Part shown: in pieces, positions 2,306-8,439 of the stretch
Layout: the number at the start of each line of letters is the position of its first letter
Numbering within the stretch: the first letter of the stretch is position 1
Virus record (IMG/VR): IMGVR_UViG_3300012352_000396
Coordinates: 1-38,509 of that record
Source: a virus
Length of the DNA: 38,509 nucleotides
Strand: one strand, 5' to 3'
The notes under the pieces: generated by a model
Seen by the model: only the letters and a program-made list of their open reading frames with translations
The model's database searches: none
What the model was told of the DNA's origin: nothing
Program-made: the position numbers and the translations under genes

Positions 2306-4813
2306 CTAAAAATCTATGTCCACTTTTTGGTTAGTGCCAAAACTGACAACTTTCTTGTTCCCAAACTGCTTGGATCGTGTACCTGAGTACGTGATTCCTA
2401 AAATAGTACACGATTCTTCCAAGGCTTTTGAGAACCTTTTTATAGAGTAATCTTTCTTGTCAAAATTGCTCTGAGACAAAAAATCGTTGTATAGTTGTTC
2501 AAGTTTTACCGGATAGTCTTTATGCTCCTCAGATGCCGTGAAAATGAAGTCCAAAAATTCTTCTCCATATTGAACACGAATCTGTTTGCGACCGAGTTTT
2601 TCACTATTTTCTACCGACTTAACTCCAAACTCCAAATAGGTTTGTACGCAAGTAAACATGAGGTTAAAAAAGCGATTCCACTCGTCCAAATCCCAATCAT
2701 CGAATAGCTTATGACCAAACTCGTCTTCTGGGGAGTGCTGAGGTGAAAAATATGGGGAGAATTCAAAAACTTTTTGTCTCCTCTTTGCGTGGTTGCCGGA
2801 ATTCGGGATGGTGTAGTTGGTGGTGAAGATGACTTTTGGGGAGTCTTTGAATGGGATGAAAAGTTCGTCTTTGTTCTTCTTCTCAACCGTGATTCCTTCC
2901 GTTATAATGCTATAAAAACCTTCAAAGTCAACGTTCCGTCTCGTATCCTCAATCGCAAGGATTTTGGTGTCCAAATCGACTCTTTGGAAGGCGAAATTCT
3001 TGTCAACCTTGAAGTTCTTACCATCAACCCGAACAAGGTTGTTCAAAAAACCCAATGCCTTCACGAAGATTCCTTTACCAGTTCCTCCACCGGAGGCTTC
3101 GTTCTCCGTCTCTTCTGCGAGAATAACGGAGAATGGTCTTGATGGGTCTTTGTATTTGTGCAGTAGGTATCCAACCAATGTCAAGCCGTAAATCGTACGA
3201 TCCATGTTCTTATCACTCACAAGGTGGATGAAACGATAGTATTCAATCATTTCAGCCTCTAATTTATCTTGGTCGATATAAATGTGGTGGTCGATGACTT
3301 GAGTCTTCCAAACGTACTTATTGAGGTCGCCATATGTTCTAAGGCGAATATAGTCCTTTTTAACCTCTACAACGCCATTTTTGAATGGGAAGTAAGCGAG
3401 GTCGCTTTTGTCTTCCAAGAAGTCGATATTTGCCCTATCGAAGAACTCAAAGAAGGCATCTGAGAATAGGGTGGTTGCACCTTTGTAAATTAATTCAAGA
3501 AGGTCTTGAGGTGTCACGCCACCATCAAATGAGTCAGGTAGCTTATCAACGTACTCTTTTATGAAGCGTTTTATCTGCTCCGTTGAACTCTCCTCTACGA
3601 ATCCATCTTGAATCCTAACGAGTCTATAAATGGTGGAATTCGGATCATAAAAATATAGCCTAAAGCCTCCGATTTGGGTAAGGAAGACCTGCAACTTATA
3701 ACGATTGATAGTAGGTAGACCTTTCTTATCAATGTCCCAAAATGTACAGATTTCCTTACCCCATCTTTGCTCCAGTTCTCCTACGACCTCAGTAGCATCG
3801 GATATGCTCTTTTTTTGTGTCTGCACAAGGTATTGGACTAAGTCCTCGCTTGATGCTCCATTTTGCTTCTTGGAGAAGAGTTGGCGTTCCAATTTCTCTC
3901 CGAAGGAAGTTTTTTTTTCCCCATAACCAATGTCAAGCAATGCCCTTGCCGCTGCTTTGAAGTCCCCATTATGCTCAAGGATAGCATACACGGCAGCAGG
4001 TTTGTATCCTTTCTGTACCATGAATGGAGTGTTGACTGAGAACACGCTAAAAAGCCTCATGGACTTATTGAATGATCCACTATGGTCAGCCTTGCTTCCA
4101 GGTCTAAGGTAATAAGTTCGTTCACTATTCTCCTTAACTATAGTCCAACCTTGGCGCAGGAGGATGTCGCTTATGTCGCCACGATTATTGAAGTCATCAA
4201 ATGGTGATACCCCGTAATCTTTTGACGTTGGGCGTTGGAACGCTTCCACAACTTGCTCCTCAACTATCTCATTAAATGAGCGCATAATCTCAAATAAGGT
4301 CTCACGCTCGTCTATTGTGATGATGTTGATACCTTTTTGAATGACTTTGTAGCCATCACTTGGAGGTGCGACAACATAACCACCCTCACCACGGGTCTCA
4401 ATGATGCAATATGATTTAATGTGTGGCGTAGCTTGAGCCTCCTCCTTTGTTGGAGGTCGTTGAGCGAGTTTAAGGTTTTGCTCAATCACTTCGCACTTGT
4501 AGTAAAGGTGTTTGCCATTACTCTTTGTGGAAACGATATGGAGTTTGTCGTACAGTTCTTGAGGGATTTTATTTTTGATAGCATCCCAAAGGTCAAATGT
4601 CTCGTATTTGGTGTCTATGTCAATTACTTCCAAGCCACCGGATATAGATCCACAAATGATGGCAATGCCTTTGGCTCGTTCGTCTTTCATTTGAAGAGAC
4701 AATTCCTCTTTTGTAATCTTCTCGCTCTGGTATTTCTTCCAAGGGAAGATGGCTTGTTTTTTGTCGTTAACTGCGATGGCATTAACGCCATAGTCTAAGT
4801 ACTTTAAATGCAT
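2306..4813 (-). CDS. Bifunctional primase-polymerase (prim-pol N-terminus) fused to a D5/P4-type SF3 helicase
   Basis: 835 aa. N-terminus: GIAIICG..LEVIDID, HLYY, ETRGEGGYVVAPPS (prim-pol signature). C-terminus: Walker A SGGGTGKG, then a D5_N/P4-primase-like region. Confidence 0.85.
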   Translation of the reverse strand: MHLKYLDYGVNAIAVNDKKQAIFPWKKYQSEKITKEELSLQMKDERAKGIAIICGSISGGLEVIDIDTKYETFDLWDAIKNKIPQELYDKLHIVSTKSNGKHLYYKCEVIEQNLKLAQRPPTKEEAQATPHIKSYCIIETRGEGGYVVAPPSDGYKVIQKGINIITIDERETLFEIMRSFNEIVEEQVVEAFQRPTSKDYGVSPFDDFNNRGDISDILLRQGWTIVKENSERTYYLRPGSKADHSGSFNKSMRLFSVFSVNTPFMVQKGYKPAAVYAILEHNGDFKAAARALLDIGYGEKKTSFGEKLERQLFSKKQNGASSEDLVQYLVQTQKKSISDATEVVGELEQRWGKEICTFWDIDKKGLPTINRYKLQVFLTQIGGFRLYFYDPNSTIYRLVRIQDGFVEESSTEQIKRFIKEYVDKLPDSFDGGVTPQDLLELIYKGATTLFSDAFFEFFDRANIDFLEDKSDLAYFPFKNGVVEVKKDYIRLRTYGDLNKYVWKTQVIDHHIYIDQDKLEAEMIEYYRFIHLVSDKNMDRTIYGLTLVGYLLHKYKDPSRPFSVILAEETENEASGGGTGKGIFVKALGFLNNLVRVDGKNFKVDKNFAFQRVDLDTKILAIEDTRRNVDFEGFYSIITEGITVEKKNKDELFIPFKDSPKVIFTTNYTIPNSGNHAKRRQKVFEFSPYFSPQHSPEDEFGHKLFDDWDLDEWNRFFNLMFTCVQTYLEFGVKSVENSEKLGRKQIRVQYGEEFLDFIFTASEEHKDYPVKLEQLYNDFLSQSNFDKKDYSIKRFSKALEESCTILGITYSGTRSKQFGNKKVVSFGTNQKVDIDF

Positions 4814-4824
4814 GGTGTAGTTTT

Positions 4825-5154
4825 TTAATATTCTTGAGCCATTTTATCGGTAATCATTTTGATGTTGATGTTTATGCCTTTGTACCAAACCACCACTAAA
4901 GGTCGACCATACTTATCAAGTGATTTTGAGTCGATTGTACATTCCACATTAAGTGGTGATGGGAGTCCAAGGAGCATTTGCAGGTGCGCTTTTGAATACT
5001 GACCCTGCTCGTATGTTTCTCCTTTAATCTCTGGAGCGTTTATCCCTGCCAACCGGCAATTAGTCTGCAATGACATATTGAATCCAAGGTCTATTGTTAT
5101 GTTCAAAGTATCACCATCTATAACCCTATTTATCTTTGCTTTGTAGTTATACAT
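4825..5154 (-). CDS. Staphylococcal-nuclease-like (thermonuclease family) protein
   Basis: VIDGDT...CRLAGINAPE...DKYGRPLV pattern typical of the SNase fold. ATG at 5154 is preferred over the TTG at 5160 used by the ORF track. Confidence 0.65.
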   Translation of the reverse strand: MYNYKAKINRVIDGDTLNITIDLGFNMSLQTNCRLAGINAPEIKGETYEQGQYSKAHLQMLLGLPSPLNVECTIDSKSLDKYGRPLVVVWYKGININIKMITDKMAQEY

Positions 5155-5156
5155 AA

Positions 5157-5429
5157 TCAAATTGTTTTATAGCAATAAACGTCAATGTCTTCAATGCAGT
5201 CAACATACCTTGCATGGATGCCAACTTTATTAAGCGTTTCAATCCTTTGCACTTGTAGAGGCTTAGGAGTCTCACCTTCGGCTTTTACCTCAAGCATGAT
5301 GGTGTTACCCTTACGAAAGCAAAGAAGGTCAGGAACGCCATTCCAATTCGTTTGGATCAGCTTTATTACAAGCCACCCATGTTGCTCAAGCTTCTTTTTG
5401 ATTTTTGTCTGAAGTTGCGATTCTTTCAT
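5157..5429 (-). CDS. VRR-NUC / PD-(D/E)XK nuclease domain protein
   Basis: 90 aa. GVPDLL...LEVK motif arrangement, as in VRR-NUC Holliday-junction-resolvase-like nucleases. Confidence 0.6.
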   Translation of the reverse strand: MKESQLQTKIKKKLEQHGWLVIKLIQTNWNGVPDLLCFRKGNTIMLEVKAEGETPKPLQVQRIETLNKVGIHARYVDCIEDIDVYCYKTI

Positions 5430-6552
5430 ATTCTGCTATGGTTTTAAAAAATTGTAGTACTAATTGTGGGACTACCGCATTTCCGGCAGCCTTTATGCTT
5501 TCGTTTCTCCATTTTGGAAAGGTAATAGAGTCCAATCCGTAGGAAACCCCATCATTTCTAACACAAATTGGGGTGACAGTTGGGAAGGTTGACCAATCTC
5601 CTGGGCGACCAAATGGTTCAGTTCTGACCTTCTCGTTGGCTCGTCTTCCGGTCTCTCTTTGTCCGTTCCCTGATTCCAACATCTCGCAGTTGGAGTTGGA
5701 AGTAATCCCATCCCTGCCAGTCTGCCCAAGTTCAGACTGTGCGAGTCCCCCGATGCCGTCACTCTCCTTCCATTCTCGTTCACTTCGCATTCCGAATTCG
5801 GTTCTTGTGTCGTTGGAGTTGGAAGTAATCCCATCACCGCAAAGTGTTCCAAGTACATTGCTCTCCTCGTTCCTCCGTATTGCTGCTGCCTCTTCTCCGT
5901 CTGTTCTATTGTCCGGTCTCTTGGAGTTGAGTTCGGGGTTGGAAGGAGTCCAAGCCTCGCTTGTTGGCGAAGATTGCAATGTAGGTTCACACCTTTCTCC
6001 GCATACTTCTGCTTGTCCTTCTCCCATAGTTCCGGATGCCTTGCTGAGTTCCAATCGAAGCTTTCCGGAGTGGGCAATAAAGAAGATTCGTTGTCTAACG
6101 TGGGGAGCGTTGACGGATACAGCTGGACATAGTATCGGGAAAACTTCGTACCCCTGAGCCTCCAAGTCAGCTTGGATCTCATTGAATACCATCCCGTTTG
6201 ACCAATTAACAAGTCCATAAACGTTCTCGCCCACAATCCAACTTGGGGCAATTTCTTTAATTGCTCTGAGCATCTGAGGCCAGAGATGTCTCGTATCTTC
6301 CGTACCTCTTCTGCTTCCTGCTGAAGAAAATGGCTGACATGGGAATCCACCGGAGAGGACATCGATGTGTCCTCTGTGAATAGTGAAATCTGTTTTGGTG
6401 ATGTCTTCATAACTAATTGAATTAGGGAAATGGTAATGTAATACTTTTCTGCCGAACTCGTTTATCTCGCAATGGAAGACATTCTCCCATCCCATCCACT
6501 CAGCAGCTAAGTCGAAGCCTCCAATTCCGGAGAATAATGATCCGTGCCTCAT
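5386..6552 (-). CDS. dcm: DNA (cytosine-5)-methyltransferase, frame A
   Basis: Motifs: I FSGIGGFD, IV GGFPCQPFS, VI GENV, VIII APHVRQRIFFIA, X AAGNAVVPQ. The ~190-aa middle of this frame is low-complexity and lacks motif IX (see frame B). Confidence 0.8.
   Translation of the reverse strand: MRHGSLFSGIGGFDLAAEWMGWENVFHCEINEFGRKVLHYHFPNSISYEDITKTDFTIHRGHIDVLSGGFPCQPFSSAGSRRGTEDTRHLWPQMLRAIKEIAPSWIVGENVYGLVNWSNGMVFNEIQADLEAQGYEVFPILCPAVSVNAPHVRQRIFFIAHSGKLRLELSKASGTMGEGQAEVCGERCEPTLQSSPTSEAWTPSNPELNSKRPDNRTDGEEAAAIRRNEESNVLGTLCGDGITSNSNDTRTEFGMRSEREWKESDGIGGLAQSELGQTGRDGITSNSNCEMLESGNGQRETGRRANEKVRTEPFGRPGDWSTFPTVTPICVRNDGVSYGLDSITFPKWRNESIKAAGNAVVPQLVLQFFKTIAEYERIATSDKNQKEA
5493..6410 (-). CDS. 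Alternative-frame (+1) ORF nested in the dcm gene; carries LLPTP x4 and SPQFVLEMMGFPTDWT
   Basis: 305 aa, fully nested in frame A on the same strand. Its motifs are those normally found between motif VIII and motif X in LLPTP-type phage C5-methyltransferases. Confidence 0.5.
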   Translation of the reverse strand: MKTSPKQISLFTEDTSMSSPVDSHVSHFLQQEAEEVRKIRDISGLRCSEQLKKLPQVGLWARTFMDLLIGQTGWYSMRSKLTWRLRGTKFSRYYVQLYPSTLPTLDNESSLLPTPESFDWNSARHPELWEKDKQKYAEKGVNLHCNLRQQARLGLLPTPNSTPRDRTIEQTEKRQQQYGGTRRAMYLEHFAVMGLLPTPTTQEPNSECEVNENGRRVTASGDSHSLNLGRLAGMGLLPTPTARCWNQGTDKERPEDEPTRRSELNHLVAQEIGQPSQLSPQFVLEMMGFPTDWTLLPFQNGETKA

Positions 6553-7025: not shown

Positions 7026-8267
7026 TCAAACAACCAAATAATCTTTTTTAAAATGTTCTAATGTGTAATCTTTCTTGTTCATTACGGCTTTGTATATCTT
7101 CTCTTCAATGCCTCCTTTTGCAAATATCCAATAAATATGGGCATCTTTTTCCCTATCCTTTGTTTGAATCCTCGCCCTTGATTGCCAATAGGAAACGGCA
7201 CTAAAGTCTATGTTCATAAATACCAAAGCATCGGCAGTAGATAGGTTGATACCCTCACGACCGGAAACGATTTGAGATGCAAAAACACAAGCACCATCAT
7301 GCTTATTAAATTCCATAGGGTCCGTAAACACCTCACCGAATATCCATTTTAGTATGTACAGTTCTGCGGTGAATTTATAAAAAATAGCAATCTTCTTGCC
7401 TTGGAATTTGTCTCTAATAAACTCTGCTTTTTTATAATCAAACGCCCTTGCCTCTCGTTTTGGTTCATCAACGATTACTGATCCGGAGTAAATCTGATGG
7501 AGTTTGCTCATCAACTTAACCGCAGTATCACCAAGAACCACATCACCATCCTTATTCTTAACGAGTTTATCAATCCTTAGTCTATCTGCAACCTTGTATG
7601 TCGATGTTTCCATTTCAACGTAAAGGATATGCTCCTGGACTAATTGCTCAAACCCTGCATCCTCCTGCGTAAAGCTTATCATCAAATGCCTTATATTATT
7701 CATTACCAATTCTTTTCTTGCGCATGAGTAGTCATTAATTGCCCTATTAAATACATACTTCTTTTGTAGGACAACAAAATATCTTGCCCATTCGTAGAAG
7801 TTTTTATAGATTAGAAAAGGGGAGAATGAAGATACATAGAGTTGGTGATAGATTTGAGAATACGACTCCGGTGTTGGTGTACCGGATAAAAATATTATAG
7901 GTAATCCTACGCAAATCCTTTTCAACTCTTTTGCCCTTAGTGATGGTGTAGGTATCGCACCAAGGCTATGAGCCTCATCAATTATAACGAGGTCGTATAT
8001 TGGTTGCACCTTTGTGAGTTGTTCGTAGTTGGTAACGTGTATCTCAAAAACTGGTGCGAAGTCTTCATGTTGCTTTAGGATATCGGGTATGGCTTTCTTC
8101 TTGGTTACGAATAGAACTTTTTTTGCGCCATATAGATTCGCAATAGCCAAAGAGGTGAGGGTCTTTCCAGTCCTCACCTCCATTGCTAAGTAAACCATTT
8201 TATAATTGCGTAATATAGACAAGCCTCTATTGGCTATGTCTTCTTGGTAGTCTCTTAGTTCAATCAT
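7026..8267 (-). CDS. SNF2/DEAD-like superfamily 2 helicase
   Basis: RDYQ (Q-motif-like), Walker A EVRTGKT, DEAH box VIIDEAHSLG, LSGTPTPES, QSRARIQT. ATG at 8267 is preferred over the TTG at 8273. Confidence 0.85.
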   Translation of the reverse strand: MIELRDYQEDIANRGLSILRNYKMVYLAMEVRTGKTLTSLAIANLYGAKKVLFVTKKKAIPDILKQHEDFAPVFEIHVTNYEQLTKVQPIYDLVIIDEAHSLGAIPTPSLRAKELKRICVGLPIIFLSGTPTPESYSQIYHQLYVSSFSPFLIYKNFYEWARYFVVLQKKYVFNRAINDYSCARKELVMNNIRHLMISFTQEDAGFEQLVQEHILYVEMETSTYKVADRLRIDKLVKNKDGDVVLGDTAVKLMSKLHQIYSGSVIVDEPKREARAFDYKKAEFIRDKFQGKKIAIFYKFTAELYILKWIFGEVFTDPMEFNKHDGACVFASQIVSGREGINLSTADALVFMNIDFSAVSYWQSRARIQTKDREKDAHIYWIFAKGGIEEKIYKAVMNKKDYTLEHFKKDYLVV

Positions 8268-8439
8268 TATCAATTAAGTTTATTACTATAAAGGTTAATA
8301 TTAGCATTATAATTATAATTACCAATGAGCATAAAACCATCATAGCTTTCTCCATTTCATCTGTCCATATCAAGTACAAGATAAAGCATGATGCTAAAAG
8401 AATAATCGTACTAAAAATGTTGCTTTTTTTTACTTTCAT
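8260..8439 (-). CDS. Small membrane protein, 59 aa, two hydrophobic segments
   Basis: Hand-translated: MKVKKSNIFSTIILLASCFILYLIWTDEMEKAMMVLCSLVIIIIMLILTFIVINLIDND. Overlaps the helicase ATG by 8 nt. Confidence 0.5.
   Translation of the reverse strand: MKVKKSNIFSTIILLASCFILYLIWTDEMEKAMMVLCSLVIIIIMLILTFIVINLIDND

Follow-up and report, generated by a model that had tools for sequence, protein, structure and literature searches.

How can a DNA (cytosine-5) methyltransferase be made from hallmark motifs that are divided between two overlapping reading frames? The question is raised by IMG/VR virus record IMGVR_UViG_3300012352_000396, a stretch of 38,509 nucleotides (nt) that is referred to here as the window. 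On its minus strand, frame A (6552..5386, 388 aa) and frame B (6410..5493, 305 aa) are both open, with frame B in the +1 frame relative to frame A and wholly inside it. The initial annotation, made from the sequence alone, had noticed that the motifs were split between two co-open frames, and both open reading frames (ORFs) and the motif coordinates held up. Of the explanations it offered, genuine dual coding is the one supported by the conservation of the layout and by frame-specific selection, and the locus is likely a nested same-strand gene pair for a heterodimeric methyltransferase of the M.EcoHK31I type. The products of frames A and B are termed alpha and beta, and their features are collected in Table 1.

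M.EcoHK31I from E. coli HK31 is a natural alpha/beta C5-methyltransferase that recognises YGGCCR. According to two reports that cite the 1995 work of Lee, Kam and Shaw on it, its beta subunit is encoded wholly within alpha in another frame; motifs I–VIII and X are on alpha, motif IX is on beta, and activity requires the two chains (PMC2836561, PMC3404938). One of these accounts adds that the N-terminus of beta is needed for association and that alternative internal Met starts are used (PMC2836561). As far as sequence can address it, the window agrees with this description in every respect of layout and motif split, with a beta nested in another frame of the same strand and motif IX on beta; the comparison is with the published description.

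By this reading, alpha would provide the whole catalytic (large) domain in two pieces, motifs I–VIII and motif X, joined by a spacer of approximately 155 aa that is probably disordered and whose sole requirement would be that it contains no stop codon. Beta would be translated from its own ATG inside the alpha coding sequence. Its N-terminal 110 aa or so are possibly a part that docks with alpha, and its four LLPTP-bounded cassettes together with motif IX would constitute the small (target-recognition) domain. Alpha and beta may then associate non-covalently into an active enzyme, as for M.EcoHK31I, with self-protection of the phage DNA against host restriction as a likely role. Translation of both ORFs and enzyme activity are predicted from sequence, and association by analogy with M.EcoHK31I.

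The two-frame layout is shared by a large number of relatives. Among 87 viral loci, frame A has no stops over the whole beta ORF (233–470 codons) in 83, with 15–38 stops in the third frame. The same stop-free layout is found in 77 of 82 loci taken from bacterial genomes and Firmicutes phages spanning several phyla, and overall both frames are stop-free in 160 of 169 loci with 9–38 stops in the third frame. Within a non-redundant set of 61 loci, every other frame is interrupted by stops in every locus. The closest isolated or deposited relatives (35–42% identity) are the Bacteroides phages BKO1-TP3 and BS-TP4 and a human-gut contig. In all three, the annotation follows frame A, whose centre is of low complexity, and the +1 frame is open, with LLPTP boxes and LNPLFV.EMMGFP..WT.LPF. 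The layout is also present in the isolated phages Diva (Paenibacillus) and Lc-Nu (Lactobacillus). Four contigs from four datasets that are 74–96% identical to the window keep both frames, and all of their indels are multiples of three. The initial annotation had allowed that the frame B motifs might prove to be unconserved among homologues; the LLPTP boxes and motif IX are kept across relatives.

For an estimate of how often such an overlap would be open by chance, the beta protein was back-translated with the codon usage of the window in 20,000 trials. The expected number of frame A stops given beta is 26.5 ± 4.0 and none of the 20,000 trials was stop-free; in the reverse calculation, 13.6 frame B stops are expected over the overlap. 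Thus, the co-openness is far beyond chance and is not an effect of composition, as the initial annotation had supposed when it judged chance to be insufficient. Its observation that the segment is GC-richer also stands, at 0.48–0.54 over 5500–6200 versus 0.36–0.43 in the flanks, and the dual-coded centre is GC-richer than its flanks in 59 of 60 loci. Stop avoidance in frame A may be one contributor to the high GC content of this gene.

The reach of the family was explored from the side of beta. A word-indexed search returned 4322 beta homologues, and the top 120 mostly cover 90–100% of beta and are without a Pfam domain. An exhaustive search of a beta profile against 1.84 billion cluster representatives matched 20,546 representative clusters at E ≤ 1e-3, 7,619 at E ≤ 1e-10 and 1,995 at E ≤ 1e-30, the weaker of which may include single-chain enzymes.

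Evidence that the two frames are under different constraints comes from the 61 non-redundant loci and from a replicate of 52 more divergent genome loci. Codon-position entropy in the 61 loci follows a classic frame A pattern at the ends where only frame A is coding and over motifs IV–VIII, and a frame B pattern across the centre and motif IX. Four-fold sites of frame B in the centre (1.29 bits in the 61 loci, 1.60 bits in the 52) are as free as the A-only controls (1.31 and 1.80 bits), so the amino acid sequence of alpha is unselected in the centre. Further along, beta-synonymous sites are frozen at B276–280 and B295–305, which lie under alpha FPT.SP and ITF.KWRNES, and are free between these islands, under MMGFP. 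At the two islands both frames are thus constrained, which the product of a double frameshift would not account for. Residues W320, F323, P324, P328, W348, R349 and G357-N358-A359 of alpha are invariant in 82 homologues. In the beta motif IX, M287, G288, F289 and P290 are invariant.

Changes among close relatives follow the same division, being overwhelmingly B-synonymous and A-nonsynonymous in the centre. Between the window and one relative (L173), there are 13 B-synonymous and 4 B-nonsynonymous changes in the centre which correspond to 1 A-synonymous and 16 A-nonsynonymous changes. In 60 loci, a T is found at the third position in none of the 3094 beta codons that precede AA, AG or GA, where it would create a stop in frame A, versus 28.5% elsewhere; the openness of frame A is therefore maintained by codon choice in beta. 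Judged from these alignments, only beta is constrained at the amino acid level in the centre, where alpha merely avoids stops, and alpha is constrained at both ends. Stop-free frames and frame-specific constraint together indicate that both frames are maintained by selection, and both are presumably translated.

The two proteins differ in what they match. Frame A matches PF00145 (E = 1.5e-44, 153.2 bits) and TIGR00675 (E = 1.6e-38), and it carries every motif tested for membership of PF00145, namely I, IV, VI, VIII and X. Residues 3–167 of alpha align with residues 14–177 of M.HhaI (motifs I–VIII, E = 7e-17). Between motifs VIII and X, where a single-polypeptide enzyme has its recognition region and motif IX, frame A has neither, an absence that the initial annotation had recognised; motif IX is in beta. 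In an AlphaFold2 model of alpha, the predicted local distance difference test (pLDDT) score is approximately 75–96 for the N-terminal catalytic part and 83–90 for the motif X helix, and falls to approximately 30 for the unselected spacer (aa 174–310).

Beta has a single match in the libraries that were searched, phrog_1008 ('DNA methyltransferase', 4.6e-18), and none in the Pfam or NCBIfam libraries. Its profile also aligns with the variable region and motif IX of a single-chain enzyme from Mycobacterium phage Rita (hhalign probability 96.2%, E = 2e-9). Both of the points at which the chain is broken between alpha and beta coincide with crossings between the large and small domains of the single-chain enzyme. 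A search of the beta profile against PDB sequences returned chance matches only. A Foldseek search of the beta model against the PDB identified nothing at E ≤ 0.001, the model confidence being too low for the search to be meaningful.

Several observations weigh against a nested heterodimer. Three loci (L004, L005 and L014, from JGI 3300036770 and 3300034073) have an in-frame stop in the PCQ motif of alpha. A further locus from IMG/VR (L066) is the only one of 61 with a frame B stop downstream of PCQ, located in the N-terminal part of beta. Four-fold A-frame sites over the N-terminal 105 codons of beta are constrained (0.78 bits, p = 0.001 in the 61 loci; 1.27 bits, p = 1e-5 in the 52 loci); however, much of the conservation of the beta N-terminus is a by-product of alpha motifs IV–VIII, and the extra constraint is moderate. 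The AlphaFold2 model of beta alone is weak (mean pLDDT of 60.8, predicted template modelling score of 0.29), with pLDDT values of 71–84 at aa 41–100 except over aa 71–80, where the score drops to 55. Lastly, the target recognition domain (TRD) predicted for M.EcoHK31I is placed in alpha in the published passages that treat it (PMC2836561, PMC3404938), whereas the variable region of alpha is here an unselected spacer.

The irregular loci have features of their own. In L004, L005 and L014, the stop is part of a two-codon insertion (GGFP-stop-LCQPYS) that has the same sequence in two samples, and the frames are otherwise intact; the alpha gene could be pseudogenised, or the stop could be read through or recoded. 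In L066, a beta start is possible only at MYFQL..., right before the first LLPTP box, which suggests that the N-terminal segment of beta is dispensable in some lineages. Another locus (L006, JGI 3300042966) has a frameshift inside alpha motif I that leaves RFTHGSLFSGI and GGFDIAAEW in separate frames. It is otherwise open, with the rest of alpha and a beta of 432 aa with seven boxes, and the frameshift may be an assembly error or decay. In a locus from a Clostridia metagenome-assembled genome (L149), the ORF bearing MGFP is only 50 aa, versus 316 aa for the A-like ORF, and the arrangement may be single-chain or different in some other way. The human-gut contig MT835926.1 (L003) contains an intein of approximately 336 aa at approximately 3190–4210 of the locus, directly before the catalytic cysteine of alpha motif IV (GGFP / CFDGDTLV...IVVHN / CQPFS; Pfam Intein_splicing, 9.8e-11, above the gathering threshold), and its beta frame begins within the 3' end of the intein-coding DNA.

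The alternative that survives best is that both ORFs are translated and do not form an obligate heterodimer, either because a single −1 shift joins beta to motif X to give the functional enzyme or because alpha has a role apart from beta, such as that of a regulator or of a non-specific methyltransferase. The three loci that retain beta despite a stop in the PCQ motif of alpha would suit such a reading. Since beta has no SAM-binding and catalytic motifs and alpha has no motif IX and no selected recognition region, however, neither would be a complete methyltransferase alone. M.EcoHK31I, which has the same layout, needs both of its chains, and a slippery site that could serve a fusion is absent at the frame junctions. 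For these reasons, this alternative is considered improbable.

Programmed frameshifting, another of the explanations initially offered, bears on where beta begins. Nearly all loci have the beta ATG at a fixed position relative to the PCQ codon (−65, −68, −80 or −35 nt). In 60 of 61 loci, frame B has no stop in the approximately 105 codons that lead up to the first LLPTP box, which is also the proposed +1 site, and 5.4 stops would be expected by chance in this N-terminal stretch (P0 about 0.001). The 25 nt upstream of the beta ATG are AT-rich in the manner of true Bacteroidota-type starts (0.70 versus 0.56 in the gene body), and in Paenibacillus phage Diva a GGGAGG is found 12 nt upstream of the internal-gene ATG.

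A double frameshift, +1 near motif VIII and −1 after WT.LPF, would produce one chain with the order A(I–VIII)-B(TRD and IX)-A(X). A chimera repaired in this way aligns in one piece, end to end, with the single-chain mycobacteriophage enzymes and scores slightly above frame A on PF00145 (166.8 versus 153.2 bits), and the switches between frames in the pattern of selection fall at the proposed shift sites. The homology that the chimera portrays is genuine, as is that of the beta profile with the Rita enzyme, but the chimera itself is probably not what the phage produces. An in-phase slippery heptamer (X XXY YYZ) is present at the junctions in 0 of 61 loci and no homopolymer above 4 nt is conserved there, the runs at both junctions being mostly 3–4 nt with three loci at 5–6 nt at the first site. 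The +1 shift would proceed with neither a 0-frame stop nor a rare-codon context to drive it, as frame A stays open at the junctions. Frame B is in place well upstream of the supposed shift, where a conserved ATG, the open codons that follow it and the synonymous constraint in alpha would all be unneeded. Beyond the shift, frame A is kept stop-free over 150–470 codons that would never be read, with its FPT.SP under selection inside the supposedly skipped region. Two inefficient events in series would also yield very little product. The data are at odds with slippage of either the ribosomal or the transcriptional kind, and a double frameshift is regarded as slightly less probable still than translation without an obligate heterodimer.

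A third alternative is that only frame A is expressed and that frame B is the untranslated ghost of an ancestral single-chain enzyme. Most pipelines do annotate frame A only, as in BKO1-TP3 and BS-TP4, and the GC-rich phage Rita has a partial B-like ghost in its +1 frame with two LLPTP boxes. Nevertheless, the centre is under purifying selection in frame B and not in frame A, the motif IX residues do not vary, and an untranslated frame would gather stops, approximately 13.6 of them by the calculation above; the ghost is very improbable. The least probable explanation, which the comparative data refute, is an artefact of two compensating homopolymer indels in an ordinary single-frame gene, as the initial annotation had proposed from the one-base changes at two short runs that restore the canonical frame: the identical layout recurs in more than 150 loci whose assemblies, isolates and technologies are independent of one another, both frames are retained in the four near-identical contigs, which come from different datasets and have indels in threes, and the openness of frame A is upheld by biased synonymous codon choice.

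Returning to the nested heterodimer, the beta proteins of the family can be considered in terms of cassettes. They carry approximately 1–7 LLPTP-type boxes that bound cassettes of approximately 40–45 aa, and the cassettes recur in different orders. In the window, the four LLPTP-bounded cassettes form modules of 40–44 aa. The two copies of a 24-nt repeat in the window bracket a one-module unit of 123 nt; as first reported, the repeat is perfect, and it has no extension at either end. Two close relatives (L173 and L174) are without this unit, with 123 and 139 gap columns relative to the window, respectively, and their beta proteins are without module 3. In L174, the first cassette is also replaced by a different one, and in a third relative (L172) the last cassette is different, the front half of the module 4 region having been swapped. 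Both frames are open in all three.

Beta cassettes may come and go, or be exchanged, through recombination at conserved repeats on their boundaries, of which the 24-nt repeat would be one. If so, the phages could re-tool the host restriction sites that they protect without touching the catalytic subunit, and cassette swapping between near-identical phages suggests a rapid retargeting of anti-restriction methylation. There is a resemblance to the multispecific enzymes of Bacillus phages SPR, phi3T and rho11s, in which Trautner and colleagues reportedly described, in 1996 (a study listed in PMC12707154), tandem recognition modules of approximately 40–50 aa that can be deleted or exchanged. Here, modules are lost or swapped between near-identical phages. 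The Bacillus phage enzymes are single polypeptides with experimentally defined TRDs, unlike the modules here which sit on a separate nested subunit. That beta is multispecific is a hypothesis. A joint proposal, that beta is modular and possibly multispecific, that the alpha spacer, of 150–470 aa in the family, is translated under no constraint other than the avoidance of stops, and that the assignment of the M.EcoHK31I TRD to alpha is wrong, is put forward tentatively and with more doubt than confidence that all three parts hold together.

Other differences from M.EcoHK31I are apparent. The latter belongs to a bacterial restriction-modification system, whereas the gene pair in the window is from a phage and no restriction partner is seen nearby. 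Beta is 305 aa in the window versus 176 aa in M.EcoHK31I. Its cassettes, which number 1–7 in the family and can be swapped, are homologues of the variable region found in single-chain enzymes and set it apart from M.EcoHK31I. A tblastn search of beta against plasmids gave no enterobacterial match.

A member of the same family is already recorded in Paenibacillus larvae phage Diva, where gp50 is annotated in GenBank as 'g49 internal gene' and has the same +1 layout. The beta of the window aligns with Diva gp50 over 95% of its own length, at approximately 25% identity. Frame A has no stops across beta in either Diva or ORF40 of Lactobacillus phage Lc-Nu, which share the family and the +1 nested layout. 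For many phages of this group, GenBank contains both ORFs, and the arrangement is unannotated in Lc-Nu. These versions differ from that of the window in having Firmicutes hosts, fewer boxes (WGTP, WATP or WPTP) and an alpha without FPT.SP. No published analysis of the Paenibacillus 'internal gene' was found, the genomics papers on these phages being silent on it, and nothing relevant turned up when the literature was searched for LLPTP or for phage cytosine methyltransferases in overlapping or alternative frames.

Single-chain and other two-chain enzymes provide some contrast. Gp76 of Mycobacterium phage Rita has the same catalytic motifs, and its LLPTP boxes and motif IX (L.P.F.EWMMG.P.GW) are homologous to beta, but it is one polypeptide in one frame with no long spacer and does not require a nested ORF. 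In its +1 frame, the Rita gene (L169) contains a ghost whose N-terminus resembles that of beta and whose two LLPTP boxes, mentioned above, come directly after motif VIII. The ghost hints at an interconversion of nested and single-chain forms, bearing in mind that open frames are cheap at 67% GC. Gp69/gp70 of Mycobacterium phage Jarcob (L176) were considered as a nested pair and ruled out, since they are a Rita-like single-chain gene split by 1 nt. M.AquI is also a C5-methyltransferase of two polypeptides that must associate (PMC3404938). In enzymes of the M.AquI type, beta carries motifs IX and X and the ORFs are consecutive, whereas in the window motif X is on alpha and beta is nested.

The nested arrangement is thus of a kind already known from M.EcoHK31I, but one that is poorly appreciated and systematically mis-annotated; it is the present locus that led to clear comparative evidence for its spread and selection. 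The layout is conserved in many more than a hundred genes of phages and prophages, and probably in thousands more. Standard gene callers give one ORF, either alpha as a 'DNA methyltransferase' or beta as a 'hypothetical protein'. Predictions of specificity then rest on the filler of the variable region, with the real determinants expected in an unannotated nested gene. With 7,619 clusters matched at the middle threshold, the annotation problem probably touches thousands of phage and prophage genes. If the reading is correct, this would be among the largest and longest (230–470 codons) families of same-strand nested genes in double-stranded DNA phages and prophages. As an unusually large and clean collection of long natural overlaps coded on one strand, in which stop avoidance through synonymous codons and frame-specific selection are both clearly marked, it could serve as a benchmark for overlap detection and help to explain how overprinted genes persist. 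Targeted methylation is an application for which natural heterodimeric C5-methyltransferases have already provided platforms (PMC2836561), and the family offers many more as possible platforms.

Table 1. Features of the nested methyltransferase locus in the window, with subunit roles as predicted (nt positions; residue numbers in brackets).
Feature	Position	Strand	Basis or remark
Frame A gene, alpha, putative catalytic subunit (motifs I–VIII, spacer, motif X)	5386..6552	-	ORF and PF00145
Motif I, FSGIGG	6534-6517	-	frame A
Motif IV, GFPCQ	6348-6334	-	frame A
Motif VI, GENV	6231-6220	-	frame A
Motif VIII, APHVRQRIFFIA	6108-6073	-	frame A
Motif X, GNAV	5484-5473	-	frame A
Alpha N-terminal part (aa 1-162), motifs I, IV (PCQ), VI (ENV) and VIII	6067..6552	-	A-frame selection
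Alpha central spacer (aa 163-319), predicted disordered	5596..6066	-	stop-free, without amino acid selection
Alpha C-terminal part (aa 320-388): W..FPTVTPIC, ITFPKWRNESIKAAGNAVVPQ (motif X), terminal helix	5386..5595	-	invariant residues
Frame B gene, beta, putative recognition subunit (305 aa, nested, +1)	5493..6410	-	homologues, profile matches
Four LLPTP boxes	6080-6066, 5948-5934, 5828-5814, 5705-5691	-	frame B
Motif IX, SPQFVLEMMGFPTDWT	5576-5529	-	frame B
Beta N-terminal segment (aa 1-110), over alpha motifs IV-VIII	6081..6410	-	open in 60/61 loci
Beta module 1, LLPTPESFDWNSARHPELWEKDKQKYAEKGVNLHCNLRQQARLG	5949..6080	-	cassette found at other positions in other betas
Beta module 2, LLPTPNSTPRDRTIEQTEKRQQQYGGTRRAMYLEHFAVMG	5829..5948	-	comparison with close relatives
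Beta module 3, LLPTPTTQEPNSECEVNENGRRVTASGDSHSLNLGRLAGMG, 123-nt unit	5706..5828	-	missing from L173 and L174
Beta module 4, motif IX, tail and stop codon	5493..5705	-	invariant motif IX residues
24-nt perfect direct repeat, copies 1 and 2	5689..5712, 5812..5835		copy 1 encodes MGLLPTPT at module boundary

At its two ends, beta is closely fitted to alpha. The beta ATG (6410–6408) falls within the YED codons of alpha, and the beta stop (5495–5493) corresponds to alpha codons 353–354, which places it 3 codons ahead of GNAV (aa 357) and not 20 as the initial annotation had counted. The overlap that it described between FFIAHS of motif VIII (6084–6067) and the first LLPTP box was found as described.

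Opposite the dual-coded segment, an antisense ORF of 194 aa (5573..6157, plus strand) is open in the window, as initially listed, but it is not conserved: none of the antisense frames is stop-free in the 61 relatives, where the three frames average 8.5–21 stops. It is probably a by-product of stop-poor, GC-richer dual-coded DNA.

The surrounding genes form a phage replication module that includes a SNF2/ResIII helicase (7026–8273), a SNase-like gene (4825–5160) and a PrimPol-DUF5906 gene (2306–4813). The alpha ATG overlaps the stop of an upstream gene of 144 aa (ATGA, 6549–6552), and the last 14 codons of alpha overlap a downstream VRR-NUC/Hjc-like gene of 90 aa (5157–5429) by 44 nt. In the relative L004, the methyltransferase is located at another site of an otherwise syntenic module, beside an HNH gene. 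From this placement, the methyltransferase gene appears to be mobile within these genomes.

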